Shown piece by piece: positions 54,502-59,675 of a stretch of 64,000 nt of DNA. Below the pieces are notes generated by a model. That model was given only the letters and a program-made list of their open reading frames with translations. It made no database searches and was not told the origin of the DNA. This DNA comes from Escherichia phage FL20. The translations under genes and the position numbers were made by a program. Each line of letters opens with the position of its first letter. The stretch's first letter is position 1. Location of the stretch: the sequence record PP400781, one strand, 5' to 3'.

Positions 54502-55503
54502 TTACATCCCTAACAGAGCGTCAAGATCATCCAGATCAGAAGCGGAGGAAGTACCGCCACCCAGATCCAGCGATGCCATCAGGTCATCAGCGGAAGAATC
54601 TAACGCCGTGCTAGCTGCGTTAATACCAACTACAGTGCTAGCTGCGTTAATACCAACTACAGTGCTAGCTGCGTTAATACCAGAATCGAATGCATTCATC
54701 TGTGCGTCAAAATCGTCAAGCTGGCTGTTAATCGCTGCCGCAGCACTGGAAGCCGCAGCACCAGCTACCATAGAAACGCCCATAGTTTTCTTAAATTTTG
54801 TTTCCAGTTCATCGAACGGTTTAAACTGGCTAGGCGCTACAATCTCACTCAGATCAACCATGTTTTCCATCAGATATTTCTGATATGCTTCGTCTTCAAT
54901 TTTCGGAAGCTGTGATTGCTGCATGAAACGAGAATCATCATAGTTCTGGTGTTTATCAACCTTCTTAGCTTTCAGGAGGAAGTTAGCACCAGAGAACACA
55001 CAAGTTACATCGACCGGAACTTCGCCCATATCGGTATTCACGTTCACCATTGCAACGATCTTATCATAAATTTTCTGACCGAAGCGGAATTTGAATACCT
55101 TACCTTCATTTTCTGGTGCTTGAGGATCTTTCAGTACCAGAATATTTGCGTAGTAAGACGCTTTACGCTTAATCAGTTGCCATTCGGTTTTATCGGTATT
55201 GTACAGGTCTTTTTCGTTAATATATTTGCACACAGGGCAAGAATCAAAATCACCGTGGGTGCTGGAGCAGTTTTCCCAATACCATTTGCCATTAACTTTG
55301 AAGGAATGGTTTACCAGTTTCACAATCGGCAGACCGTCTTCTGTCTTAGACGGCAGGAAGCGAATCAGGGCTTCACCGTTACCTGCTGCATCAGTCTTAA
55401 TCTTCCACTCTTTTGGATCTTCTTTGGAGAAACCGTTGCCACCTTTCAGTGCGGCCAGTTGAGCTTGCAGTTTGGAGCTATCTTGACGACGAAACATGTT
55501 CAT
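54502..55503 (-). CDS. 32: single-stranded DNA-binding protein gp32
   Basis: 333 aa; blocks [20 protein letters not shown] (zinc site), [31 protein letters not shown] match T4 gp32. Confidence 0.95.
54601..54681. repeat. in-frame tandem 27-bp repeat (3 copies) inside gene 32 encoding GINAASTVV x3
   Basis: Three consecutive 9-residue units at residues 275-301 of gp32; nucleotide units near-identical. Confidence 0.8.
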
Positions 55504-55563: not shown

Positions 55564-56160
55564 TTAATTGCTTGTCAATACTTTATCAATTATATCTAAC
55601 AGTTTTGGCTTTCTATTTTCAAATTCTAACATCTCTTCGGGAGAAATGTCAACTACTTCTGTTTTGTTGAAAAAGTTTGGGTCTATAGCATCAGCAACAA
55701 AGTTTCTCGCAAGTGCTGCCGCTTTCTCATGAACATATATTCCCAAATATATCAACTTCTTTCTTTCGACCTGAATATTGGCAACATATTTACCATCTCG
55801 TTTATAAAGACTAACACCGATATATTCAGACGATCGACCTTTCTGTTTACCCATATTTCTTGAGTTTTGTTGCTCGTTCGCATCTCTCAAGTTTTCAATC
55901 CGATTATCTGTTATAATTCGGTTAACATGGTCAACGTATTTTGGCATGTATCCATGATGCATAAAGAAAATTATTCTATGCTCTTTATGATGTTTACCAT
56001 CGATACACACCAATCTGTATCCATGACTAGGATTAACTCCACCCGCTCTAGATCCGACTTTATGCTTTCTGTTTGTCGATATCTTGCGAATCAGCTTACC
56101 GTTATCATATTTAAAGAGTTCATGACAACGAGCATACAATTCAGGATCATATGTTTTCAC
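55564..56160 (-). CDS. HNH-AP2 homing endonuclease
   Basis: 198 aa; HNH_3-type motif HRIIFFMHHG...VDHVNRIITDNRIENLRDANEQQNS followed by AP2 domain YIGVSLYKRDGKYVANIQVERKKLIYLGIY; occupies the segG locus of T4. Confidence 0.7.
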   Translation of the reverse strand: MKTYDPELYARCHELFKYDNGKLIRKISTNRKHKVGSRAGGVNPSHGYRLVCIDGKHHKEHRIIFFMHHGYMPKYVDHVNRIITDNRIENLRDANEQQNSRNMGKQKGRSSEYIGVSLYKRDGKYVANIQVERKKLIYLGIYVHEKAAALARNFVADAIDPNFFNKTEVVDISPEEMLEFENRKPKLLDIIDKVLTSN

Positions 56161-56833: not shown

Positions 56834-57103
56834 TTAAATATCGAGAGTGTTGGTCGGTTCGTCGATCACTCCCTTCCTGAGCGTTCTATTTACTATACAT
56901 TCTTGTGTGATCTTGTCAATAATGGACACCGGAATATATTTCTGATAGTGACCATATTCTATAGAGTTTTCCTCTACAAACTGAGTTGTCGCTTCAAGAT
57001 AAGTCAATCCCTCTTCAACAACCAGTTTTTCGATTGCAAGACCGTTTGCTGTTTTATTCGCGGCTTTTACCGCATGTTCATTAAGCATTGAACACCCGAT
57101 CAT
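56834..57103 (-). CDS. 33: late promoter transcription accessory protein gp33
   Basis: 89 aa; block YLEATT.F.EENSI matches T4 gp33; synteny. Confidence 0.8.
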   Translation of the reverse strand: MIGCSMLNEHAVKAANKTANGLAIEKLVVEEGLTYLEATTQFVEENSIEYGHYQKYIPVSIIDKITQECIVNRTLRKGVIDEPTNTLDI

Positions 57104-57356
57104 AGAGTTCTACTGCTTCATCGCGTTCTGCTTCGAAGGTTTCGCGCTGTTGCTGGTGATACAGTTTAAACAGAATGCCCCACATTTTACCATCTACGCC
57201 TAATTCTTCTTTAGCACGCTGTTTGATCTCTTTGATCTTATCGCCATATGCTTCTTGAATGGTTTTCTGATCACTGGCTTCTTTAATCAGTTGTGCCAGG
57301 GTATTTCCGTGCACTGCTTCGTCAAATACTACTTTTTCTTTTTTCTGTTCAGTCAT
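57081..57356 (-). CDS. dsbA: DsbA-like double-stranded DNA-binding protein
   Basis: 91 aa; synteny between 33 and rnh. Confidence 0.65.
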   Translation of the reverse strand: MTEQKKEKVVFDEAVHGNTLAQLIKEASDQKTIQEAYGDKIKEIKQRAKEELGVDGKMWGILFKLYHQQQRETFEAERDEAVELYDRVFNA

Positions 57357-57360
57357 AATA

Positions 57361-57957
57361 TTAACCCTCTTTCGTCATTAATTGAAAACCACGTTCAGCT
57401 TTTGAAATTTCGCTAGGACTTAAATCGTCACCAACATATTCTAGCATCATTTCTCGGATAATGTCAAGTGCTTTTTCATCACCTGATTTTAACTCGAACT
57501 CAAGTTCATAGTGAGCATCTCCCATGACTTCGCCGACTTTGCAATAATAGAAAGTGTCTTTGCACATTTCCACTATAGCACCCTCAAGGTCAAGTGTCAA
57601 TGACTTGAGGTATGTCATTACTTGCAACAAAGGAACTATAAGGTCGGAGTTTACGCCTAGACTATCAACATAGTGATAGAAATCATCCATTGTTGAAAAA
57701 GTAATTTCTTCTCGGTTGAATAGTCCAGATTCACCATCACCTATTTTGATCATGATCAATGATCTATTAACGTCAAGTCGAGCATAAATTCCTTTTCGAC
57801 GCAGTGCATGATCTTCGGTATCATAATAAAATTCGTGTTTTAGAGTGTTAGCATGATCTACGATATTGTACCCGTCATACATTGCCGCCCACAAATCACA
57901 GATGGTTTCGACGCCAATTTGTGAGTGTACATAGTATTTTAATTCAAGTTCTTTCAT
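57361..57957 (-). CDS. CYTH-domain (triphosphate tunnel metalloenzyme) protein
   Basis: 198 aa; N-terminal ExExK (MKELELKYYV), YYDTEDHALRRKG...AR (YFDTPD...LR.R-type block), C-terminal ExExE (YELEFEL). Confidence 0.7.
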   Translation of the reverse strand: MKELELKYYVHSQIGVETICDLWAAMYDGYNIVDHANTLKHEFYYDTEDHALRRKGIYARLDVNRSLIMIKIGDGESGLFNREEITFSTMDDFYHYVDSLGVNSDLIVPLLQVMTYLKSLTLDLEGAIVEMCKDTFYYCKVGEVMGDAHYELEFELKSGDEKALDIIREMMLEYVGDDLSPSEISKAERGFQLMTKEG

Positions 57958-57967
57958 GTGTCAACCC

Positions 57968-58915
57968 TTAGAACTCACCAATTTTCTGTAACATTTTAAC
58001 TAACGCATTTGTTACAAAATAGTTATAAATTTTACCGCGTGGTGCTGGTTTAGATTTTTCCCATGCTAACAAAATTTCATATTCGATGTTATCGGGAATA
58101 AATTCAAAATCAATAAGTTCGCGGTTTTCGTCAAAGCGTCGTGCTTCTTCCTCTGTCATCAAAGACTTTGGATCTTCGGCATCGAAAATTTGCTCTAACC
58201 ATTTGGTTGCAATTGGTTTAGCTCGTTCTCCTTCCAGTCGTGAGATAATGAAATCACTACGGCACTTGATCGAAGCTACACCGTCTTTTGCGTCACCCTT
58301 AACACATTTTACCATAAGGTCTTTGTAAGGGCTACCATATTTGCATTTCTTCCATGCTTTCTGTACTGGCGCCCACTGTTTCACATTTTTGTATTTGTGC
58401 AACTGTGTGTAGTCACCATCGCCGGAGTTGATTAGCACCTGGCGACCTTCTACAGAAAACTTTTTAGTTAATACAGCGATTATGTCATCTGCTTCAACTT
58501 TGTCAACCTTAATAACGTGATAAGGCATGTTCTCTTTAAACTCTTCGGTGATCTTATTGATCGCAGCAAAGATCATCTCCCAATCACGCGGATCTGCGTC
58601 TCGTTTTTCCTTACGGTTGCGTTTATAGTAAGGGGCGATATCACGTCGCCAGTAACCTTTGCTTGAATCAAAAGCAAGTACCGTAATAGGGTATTGCTCT
58701 TTGAATTTTGTCATATTATAACGCATGGTGTCAAGAATAAGATGACGGATCATGCCTTCATTAATAGGATCTTCCGGTTTAAAGGTATGCGAGATAGTGG
58801 CAATCATAAGCTGCGACATATCAATCAAATGCACACCTTCCGGTAGTTTATCTTCTGGATCATCGAAGAAATCATTAAGTGTAGCGGTCGTTTTTGTAAA
58901 CGGGTTATACGTCAT
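57968..58915 (-). CDS. rnh: RNase H (FEN-family 5'-3' exonuclease)
   Basis: 315 aa; blocks MIRHLIL, GYWRRD, YHVIKVDKVEADDIIAVL, SGDGDYTQLHKY.NVKQW.P, PRGKIY.YFV match T4 RNase H. Confidence 0.93.
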   Translation of the reverse strand: MTYNPFTKTTATLNDFFDDPEDKLPEGVHLIDMSQLMIATISHTFKPEDPINEGMIRHLILDTMRYNMTKFKEQYPITVLAFDSSKGYWRRDIAPYYKRNRKEKRDADPRDWEMIFAAINKITEEFKENMPYHVIKVDKVEADDIIAVLTKKFSVEGRQVLINSGDGDYTQLHKYKNVKQWAPVQKAWKKCKYGSPYKDLMVKCVKGDAKDGVASIKCRSDFIISRLEGERAKPIATKWLEQIFDAEDPKSLMTEEEARRFDENRELIDFEFIPDNIEYEILLAWEKSKPAPRGKIYNYFVTNALVKMLQKIGEF

Positions 58916-59109: not shown

Positions 59110-59675
59110 TCATCCTCTTTTTGGAAAATTTAAATAAGCATACTCGCCAACTCTTTCATGTGCTGCACGGTCATAAGCCTTAGCCGCCTCAACTTCTGTC
59201 TCAAAGTATCCTAGATGTATATTCTTTCGATTGATAACAATATACGCCTTCCACGGCTTTTTCTTGCTTGTTGATAATGATACACCTTTATATTTGCTAT
59301 GACAAGCCTTTTTCTTTGAGACGTTAAACTGATTTTGCTGTTCTGTTGCTTCTCTCATGTTTGACGGTCTATTGTTAGTTTTGTCTTGGTCTATGTGATC
59401 TATTAGTTCAACCTGAGTACCATACTCTAAAAACCAGACAACTCTATGTACAAATAGATTAAGTTTATGACCATTGTTATAAAATGTAAAGTATAAATAT
59501 CCTTCTTTATGGAGACGTTACCCTTACCACATCACCTTTTTTGTATCTGGACCCTTCTTTTCGGAATCCAGCAGCTACAGAATCCTTTAAATGGTATAAT
59601 ATTCCATCAACATGATAAAATCTACCTTTTATCGCTTTCTGTGTCTCGATATCCCAAAATTTTGTTTTTGCCACA
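59110..59675 (-). pseudogene. decayed HNH-AP2 homing endonuclease (approximate upstream limit)
   Basis: Track ORF 59110-59358 is an AP2 domain (YKGVS...KPWKAYI...GYFETEVEAAKAYDRAA); the same frame upstream, with no start codon, reads HRVVWFLEYGTQVELIDHIDQDKTNNRPSN (HNH_3 motif) and is closed by stop codons; an N-terminal fragment lies in another frame. Confidence 0.6.

Follow-up and report, generated by a model that had tools for sequence, protein, structure and literature searches.

Between the genes of the T4-type RNase H (rnh) and of the double-stranded DNA-binding late-transcription protein (dsbA), Escherichia phage FL20 carries an open reading frame (ORF) of 198 codons, which raises the question of what kind of enzyme it encodes, on what this enzyme acts and how long it has occupied this site. 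The locus was analyzed in a window of 64,000 nucleotides (nt) of this RB49-like Krischvirus (sequence record PP400781). The original prediction had placed a 198-residue protein with an ELELK motif, a YFDTPD-like block and a YELEFEL motif between dsbA and rnh and had called it a CYTH protein or triphosphate-tunnel metalloenzyme (TTM). The ORF and its motifs are present exactly as described (ELELK, residues 3-7; YYDTEDHALRRKG, residues 44-56, including YYDTED; YELEFEL, residues 150-156), and the Pfam-identified neighbours agree with the placement. The product is a CYTH protein by profile and by predicted fold, and it probably works as a stand-alone two-metal phosphohydrolase and not as a cyclase.

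CYTH membership and tunnel residues

The search against the Pfam profile PF01928, which had been proposed as a check, resulted in a significant match from end to end (residues 1-190 on positions 1-178 of 179) with an E-value of 2.5e-5 and 24.6 bits at a cut-off of 23.2. The comparison of the phage-family profile with a profile of cellular CYTH proteins by hhalign revealed a probability of 99.8% and an E-value of 2.6e-28. The AlphaFold (AF2) model of the protein reached a predicted local distance difference test score (pLDDT) of 91.7 and a predicted template-modelling score (pTM) of 0.85. It consists of eight long β-strands and a C-terminal helix (residues 186-195), in line with the architecture of the superfamily, in which eight antiparallel strands form a tunnel-shaped barrel and a plug helix follows at the C-terminus. 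The top PDB match of the model in the Foldseek search was Escherichia coli YgiF with tripolyphosphate and Mg2+ (5a60; E-value 6.6e-13, template-modelling score 0.79). The remaining strong matches were all TTMs, namely HpAC1, BH2851, AtTTM3, SaTTM, thiamine triphosphatase (ThTPase) and YpAC-IV, with capping triphosphatases lower in the list. YgiF was also the sole match in the sequence search of the PDB, where it was weak (E-value 0.13 with the single sequence and 0.0049 with the profile), and the NCBIfam scan of the protein returned zero matches. The similarity to CYTH far exceeds what chance would produce, and the assignment made by the original prediction is supported by Pfam, by hhalign and by the fold match to YgiF.

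On the modelled barrel, a charged interior appears to be preserved by selection while the exterior drifts. Conservation is higher at tunnel-phase positions of the predicted strands (0.81) than at outward ones (0.58; Mann-Whitney p = 4e-6), and 20 of the 45 tunnel-phase positions on the eight strands carry charged residues, compared to 6 of the 47 out-of-phase positions. The residues E3, E5, K7, Y44, D46, R60, K71, R82, E84, E153, E155, S185, and K186 are invariant among homologues down to 22-28% identity.

Their counterparts in YgiF were drawn from HMMER alignments and hhalign. In YgiF, metal 1 is coordinated by E160 and metal 2 by E4, E6, and E162; metal 2 activates the water for the attack, R56 serves as the catalytic residue and the substrate is bound by K69 (Martinez et al. 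2015, PMC4641920). The phage protein shares the ExExK motif with this CYTH-CHAD protein (5a60/5a61), has R60, K71, R82, and E84 in place of R56, K69, R81, and E83 and E153/E155 in place of E160/E162, and ends in the same SKxxRG plug helix; R126 of YgiF corresponds to R117 of the phage family. The two proteins are 23% identical and differ in several respects. The CHAD domain is absent from the phage protein, which terminates at residue 198, just past the plug helix, and gave no match to CHAD; D62 and a Tyr stand where YgiF has R58 and a small residue; the β3-β4 hairpin is shortened by two residues; and the gene is phage-borne and lineage-restricted.

MAFFT alignments with intermediates and hhalign place R60 on the invariant catalytic Arg of strand β3 and D62 on the second Arg of the RxR motif. 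The resulting Y-x-R-x-D instead of small-x-R-x-R on β3 appears, from these alignments, to be a real deviation. The position of Y58 is occupied by a small residue in TTMs, by Trp or Tyr in ThTPases and by Val or Ile in the most distant phage homologues. The single-domain enzymes NeuTTM, CthTTM, and SaTTM (7ns9/7nsf; ~150-200 residues) resemble the phage protein in their size, in the ExE on β8 and in the two-metal mechanism, which is proposed here for the phage protein, but they are only 15-16% identical to it and carry R-x-R and, on β6, K-x-R, where the phage family has R-x-D and T-x-R (with Leu for this Arg in FL20). With regard to structure prediction and tunnel-residue mapping, which had likewise been proposed as a check, the predicted fold is confident, and alignment and strand phase revealed conserved acidic and basic tunnel residues and also two replacements, at the second RxR Arg and, in FL20, at the β6 Arg.

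The CYTH annotation is correct, yet it is already published and in databases, which have flagged it since 2003-2006. The orthologue in the same slot of phage RB49 (RB49ORF244c/RB49p245; 96% identical, with Arg117 where FL20 has Leu117) was entered as 'CYTH domain' with an E-value of 0.0026 in Table 3 of Nolan et al. 2006 (PMC1524935), and in GenBank the RB49 gene carries the note 'similar to P45267, P30871, HI1598, ygiF'. Homologues are named 'CYTH domain-containing protein' in NCBI and UniProt and, in some records, 'inorganic triphosphatase' or 'adenylate cyclase', and PHROG 14893 is annotated as function unassigned. Other, unrelated CYTH proteins are present in phages and giant viruses.

Probable chemistry and substrate

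For a hydrolase of this kind, the following reaction is proposed. The eight-stranded β-barrel would be closed by the C-terminal plug helix, and the tunnel would bind the triphosphate group through R60, K71, R82, and, in the family, R117. Of the two metals (Mg2+ or Mn2+), metal 1 would be bound by E153 and metal 2 by E3, E5, and E155. Metal 2 would activate a water molecule, which would attack the terminal (γ) phosphate, resulting in the release of inorganic phosphate.

The class IV adenylate cyclases (CyaB and YpAC-IV, 2fjt/3n0y) have the superfamily fold and the ExExK motif in common with the phage protein. According to published rules, they are recognized by HFxxxxExExK, by ExA on β8 and by the replacement of the first β3 Arg with a small residue (Vogt et al. 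2021, PMC8233210). In the phage protein (M-K-E-L-E-L-K), ExExK begins at residue 3 without an HF motif, and a longer N-terminus is impossible, because an in-frame TGA is located two codons 5′ of the ATG. On β8, the ExE of E153 and E155 is kept instead of ExA, and the first β3 Arg is kept as R60. Since all three rules fail, the label 'adenylate cyclase' in some GenBank records is unsupported and the configuration is that of a triphosphatase. Among the CYTH activities listed in the original prediction, triphosphate hydrolysis therefore fits, whereas class IV adenylate cyclase is excluded by the published determinants. The chief use of the analysis as it stands is the correction of these labels in phage records.

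With regard to the substrate, the analysis leans weakly to a triphosphate ester, such as a nucleoside triphosphate (NTP), a deoxynucleoside triphosphate (dNTP) or a molecule like thiamine triphosphate, over free inorganic triphosphate (PPPi). This preference is based on the charge of D62, on Y58 at the stacking position of ThTPase and on the inorganic triphosphatase (PPPase) activity that is already abundant in E. coli. By analogy to SaTTM and ThTPase, the negative charge of D62 would be located at the tunnel end next to the plug helix, towards which the organic moiety of the substrate is oriented. Mammalian ThTPase (5a64, 3bhd) also has an aromatic residue (W53, compared to Y58) two positions N-terminal of the catalytic Arg, and the organic moiety is expected near the plug helix in both. 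It differs from the phage protein in its W/YxRxR motif, the second Arg of which is Asp62 here, and its fold match is much weaker (E-value ~1e-6).

Several points weigh against the assignment as a two-metal hydrolase. The Pfam score exceeds the gathering score by just 1.4 bits. The register of β3 depends on the alignment, as HMMER against YgiF alone pairs Y58/R60 with the two Arg residues instead of R60/D62. The latter register is favoured by the G-x-x-x-R-x-R spacing in relatives, and in either register β3 would have a single Arg with the conserved Tyr and Asp flanking it on the same face. The second Arg of RxR, found in >90% of cellular relatives, is replaced by D62 throughout the clade (by Asn in the homologue P0045). 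This Arg is dispensable for the PPPase activity of AtTTM3 (PMC4641920), so that D62 is no argument against catalysis. With Asp for the second RxR Arg and Leu for the β6 Arg, the activity of the FL20 protein itself is uncertain. Furthermore, some plant TTMs were reported to make small amounts of cyclic AMP (cAMP) despite a triphosphatase-type sequence. E. coli pyrophosphatase supplies most of the PPPase activity of the cell and a knockout of ygiF changes nothing measurable (Kohn 2012), and this abundant activity leaves the benefit to the phage unexplained. Finally, the literature search yielded neither a functional characterization of a phage TTM nor biochemistry on any family member.

Locus, age, and recombination

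The Pfam-identified genes of this region, all on the minus strand, are arranged in the order gp32, HNH-AP2 homing endonuclease, gp59, gp33, dsbA, CYTH ORF, and rnh (Table 1). On the coding strand around the CYTH gene, no terminator-like site was found, which together with the gaps of 10 and 4 nt fits co-transcription with rnh and dsbA; the gene would thus be transcribed within an rnh-dsbA-33-59 block. A promoter of its own was considered and is unsupported, as the coding strand lacks a T4-type late motif and transcription from a σ70-like match at the rnh/CYTH junction would begin within the ORF. This match consists of a perfect TTGACA -35 element in the rnh-CYTH spacer (57958-57967, GGGTTGACAC) and of TAAAAT 17 nt on, inside the CYTH ORF (11 of 12 consensus positions). 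Its significance is uncertain, because a start from this site would fall downstream of the CYTH start codon.

Table 1. Positions of the CYTH gene, its neighbours, its predicted tunnel residues and the divergence island in the FL20 window.
Feature	Position	Strand	Remarks
CYTH/TTM gene, 198 aa	57361..57957	-	Identical to XAO15415.1 (Escherichia phage FL20); RB49p245/RB49ORF244c orthologue; PHROG 14893
rnh (T4-type RNase H/5′-3′ exonuclease)	57968..58915	-	PF09293/PF02739; upstream neighbour, 10-nt gap to CYTH start
dsbA (dsDNA-binding late-transcription protein)	57081..57356	-	PF11126; downstream neighbour, 4-nt gap after CYTH stop
ExExK (E3, E5, K7), strand β1, codons 3-7	57937..57951	-	E3/E5 correspond to YgiF E4/E6 (predicted metal-2 ligands); invariant in all homologues
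β3 motif Y58-A-R60-L-D62, codons 58-62	57772..57786	-	R60, invariant catalytic Arg (YgiF R56); D62 replaces second RxR Arg; Y58 at the ThTPase Trp53 position
K71, R82, E84, codons 71-84	57706..57747	-	Conserved tunnel residues on β4 and β5 (YgiF K69, R81, E83)
Codon 117, CTC (Leu)	57607..57609	-	Arg (CGC or AGA) in every other homologue examined; conserved β6 Arg (YgiF R126, SaTTM R112)
E-L-E-F-E, β8, codons 151-155	57493..57507	-	E153 corresponds to YgiF E160 (metal 1), E155 to YgiF E162 (metal 2)
C-terminal 'plug' helix, codons 185-195	57373..57405	-	Conserved S185, K186, R189
Divergence island, last ~240 nt of rnh and CYTH codons 1-148	57514..58200	-	Identity to phage Skers 54-57% in the first ~450 nt of CYTH and 82-88% in the rnh tail (57958-58200)

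The phage CYTH family is small and isolated. Among 1.84 billion cluster representatives, 3 matched with E-values below 1e-30 and 6 below 1e-10, and the weak tail of this search contained ordinary CYTH proteins of ~200 residues and YgiF-sized proteins of ~500 residues. In the phage collection, 58 records contain the CYTH gene, all of them Krischvirus, compared to 1,420 records with dsbA. IMG/VR contributed only three further loci, too few for a population survey. In T2, KIT01 (Dhakavirus), KPV15 (Jiaodavirus), and Ah1 (Cinqassovirus), rnh directly adjoins dsbA; the statement of the original prediction that T4 has no gene here thus holds by proxy, via these four phages. The gene belongs to the accessory, non-core genes of Krischvirus-like phages.

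Metagenomic homologues with 44%, 36%, and 28% identity occupy this same position ahead of dsbA and gp33, and the single contig that extends far enough also shows rnh on the upstream side. A recent horizontal insertion, as suggested by the word 'inserted' in the original prediction, was rejected, as synteny is held down to 28% identity and the G + C content of the gene is unremarkable; the gene is an old, lineage-specific one in a constant rnh-CYTH-dsbA slot. Relatives beyond the metagenomic homologues are cellular, e.g., P0046, which lies beside a PRK-family kinase in an archaeal-type neighbourhood.

Pairwise ratios of non-synonymous to synonymous substitution (dN/dS, Nei-Gojobori) of 0.18-0.34 indicate purifying selection on the CYTH gene. 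Compared to Skers, the FL20 window is 97-100% identical through the rest of rnh and through dsbA-33-59-HNH-32, and the first three quarters of the CYTH gene stand out by the low identities given in Table 1. Upstream of the gene, the island reaches into the C-terminus of RNase H. In ECD7-type phages, the dip at the CYTH locus is milder (74-86% identity). The proportion of synonymous differences (pS) between the window and Skers drops from 0.78 in codons 1-148 to 0.03 in codons 149-198, and the C-terminal ~50 residues are near-invariant even among alleles with 56% overall identity. Extreme functional constraint on these residues was rejected as an explanation, since the synonymous divergence is also near zero there, so that the invariance reflects recombination. 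Judged by these differences, a recombination breakpoint lies near codon 149, and the gene forms a local island of divergence, the old alleles of which have been exchanged by recombination. All classes of alleles retain the full catalytic set.

Among >75 sequences, the replacement R117L is private to FL20: Arg stands at this position in the 45 other sequences of the family alignment, in 13 more members of the cluster and in the other intact alleles of the surveyed isolates and metagenomes. In the alignments, residue 117 falls on the β6 Arg that is invariant in cellular CYTH proteins (R122 of A4, R126 of YgiF), and the equivalent R112 of SaTTM is a listed triphosphate ligand; by alignment, it probably also corresponds to R125 of ThTPase, which holds the released γ-phosphate. 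The conserved β6 triphosphate-binding Arg is thus missing from the FL20 protein, and the enzyme is probably weakened by this replacement. Two further isolates have private lesions in the catalytic machinery. vB_ESM-pEJ01 (pEJ01; OP114734, locus L003, 3001-3597) carries E153K at the predicted metal-1 Glu, and vB_EcoM_G2494 (G2494; MK327935, locus L022, 61-656) has a 1-nt deletion at codons 59-60, adjoining the catalytic Arg, which leads to a stop after residue 66 and to an annotation as two ORFs. Lesions in 3 of 18 sampled isolates are suggestive of dispensability on laboratory hosts and could equally be due to chance or sequencing error. On the terminal branch of FL20, 4 non-synonymous and 4 synonymous private changes were counted, and the branch is not obviously relaxed.

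Beyond the known annotation, the analysis adds some modestly new points, namely the variant motif Y-x-R-x-D, an island of divergence with a breakpoint inside the gene, the old age of the gene order and three alleles (R117L, E153K, and the frameshift). The locus would matter more if the phage enzyme had a specific substrate. A stand-alone phage TTM under purifying selection represents a simple genetic system for the question of which triphosphate counts in the course of infection, with one accessory gene and natural R117L, E153K, and frameshift alleles.

Candidate roles and neighbouring elements

The lesions bear first on whether the FL20 gene is a weakened or dead allele heading to loss or, more generally, whether the protein has a non-catalytic role as in the TTM-like Mediator subunits. 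This is possible, though unlikely. R117L affects a conserved triphosphate ligand and is found in no other sequence of those examined, and E153K of pEJ01 and the frameshift of G2494 point in the same direction. However, the catalytic residues are conserved across the family down to 28% identity, the dN/dS values are ~0.2-0.3, and the FL20 ORF is intact on a branch without obvious relaxation. In AtTTM3, the basic tunnel residues besides the catalytic Arg mostly tolerate mutation with partial loss only (PMC4641920).

An inorganic triphosphatase specific for PPPi, which like YgiF would serve housekeeping during replication (phosphate and pyrophosphate economy or the removal of a chelator of Mg2+ and Ca2+), is unlikely. 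YgiF is the only sequence match in the PDB and the best fold match, YgiF and NeuTTM are specific PPPases, and some records are annotated as 'inorganic triphosphatase'. The phage protein, however, lacks the CHAD domain of YgiF and has the negative charge of D62 where PPPi-specific enzymes carry Arg, and the dominance of the host pyrophosphatase and the silent ygiF knockout described above argue against a need for such an activity.

The original prediction had proposed that the enzyme could manipulate host second messengers or degrade immune signalling nucleotides. In such a counter-defence or host-takeover role, it would hydrolyze a signalling nucleotide (pppA-oligoadenylates, (p)ppGpp/pppApp or a dNTP-derived molecule) or clear PPPi released by host dNTP triphosphohydrolases. 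This concerns the role of the protein and is compatible with hydrolase chemistry, and it is rather improbable. The indirect hints in its favour are the accessory, lineage-restricted distribution (58 of ~1,420 dsbA-carrying phage records), the island amid genomes of 97-100% identity with its diverging exterior and conserved tunnel, the non-canonical Y-x-R-x-D motif and the private catalytic lesions, which fit a function needed on some hosts only. Direct support is missing: the scan of the protein against PADLOC-DB profiles gave no match at E <= 1, the literature search found no paper tying a TTM to phage counter-defence, and no linked partner gene is present. Moreover, synonymous divergence in the island is saturated, and a ratio of non-synonymous to synonymous differences (pN/pS) of ~0.5 speaks for an old allele imported by recombination rather than for positive selection; the three lesions could be chance or sequencing error, with equal numbers of non-synonymous and synonymous changes on the FL20 branch.

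As a long shot, the Krischvirus CYTH clade could represent a functionally new TTM subtype, in which the remodelled substrate end with Y58, D62, and M69 (for a small residue, Arg, and Thr) would suit the enzyme to the hydrolysis of a specific organic triphosphate of phage-host conflict, e.g., an immune signal that bears a triphosphate, or a precursor. If true, this would explain the divergence island with its conserved tunnel and variable surface as well as the recurring R117L, E153K, and codon-59 frameshift in isolates grown on permissive laboratory hosts. A dCTP-clearing role tied to DNA modification was considered and dropped, as nothing connects cytosine modification to the CYTH gene. According to a 2026 paper (PMC13390438), the cytosines of the Krischvirus SAP are modified, and those of the 99.96% identical TB34 are canonical.

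An RNA 5′-triphosphatase acting on 5′-ppp ends, either of the primase pentaribonucleotide primers that are removed by RNase H or of phage or host transcripts, is very improbable. The TTM superfamily includes Cet1-type enzymes, viral capping triphosphatases are among the weaker fold matches, and the gene lies directly downstream of rnh in what would be one transcription unit. However, the Pfam match is to CYTH, with none to mRNA_triPase (PF02940) at E <= 1, the fold matches to capping enzymes (E-values of 1e-4 to 1e-6) are far weaker than those to CYTH, and the conserved plug helix shuts one end of the tunnel. In T2, KIT01, KPV15, and Ah1, the same replication block operates without a CYTH gene, and gene order in T4-like phages mirrors ancestry more than function. 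A class IV (CyaB-type) adenylate cyclase, the cAMP of which would rewire host CRP regulation, can hardly be upheld: the PHB13 and AV108 records are so annotated and the fold is the same, but the published determinants fail and YpAC-IV is located far below YgiF in the fold search.

Two homing-endonuclease genes were observed near the locus. At 59114-59675 on the minus strand (ORFs 59110-59358 and 59507-59674), an HNH-AP2 gene is frameshifted near 59516; residues 1-53 and 54-187 of the intact 187-residue ORF of pEJ01 match in two frames with 96-98% identity, and the whole segment is missing from RB49, Skers, and the ECD7-like phage. Between gp32 and gp59, a gene for an HNH_3 and AP2 homing endonuclease of 198 residues (55564-56160, minus strand) shares 14 nt with the 3′ end of gp59. 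This gene is found in the window, in Skers, and in pEJ01 and is missing from RB49 and ECD7-like phages; due to this patchy occurrence, it is regarded as a presence/absence mobile element. The gp32 gene itself (54502-55503) contains an extra in-frame unit of 9 residues near residues 275-301, in the C-terminal region, and its product comprises 333 residues in the window, compared to 322 in RB49 and 324 in Skers.

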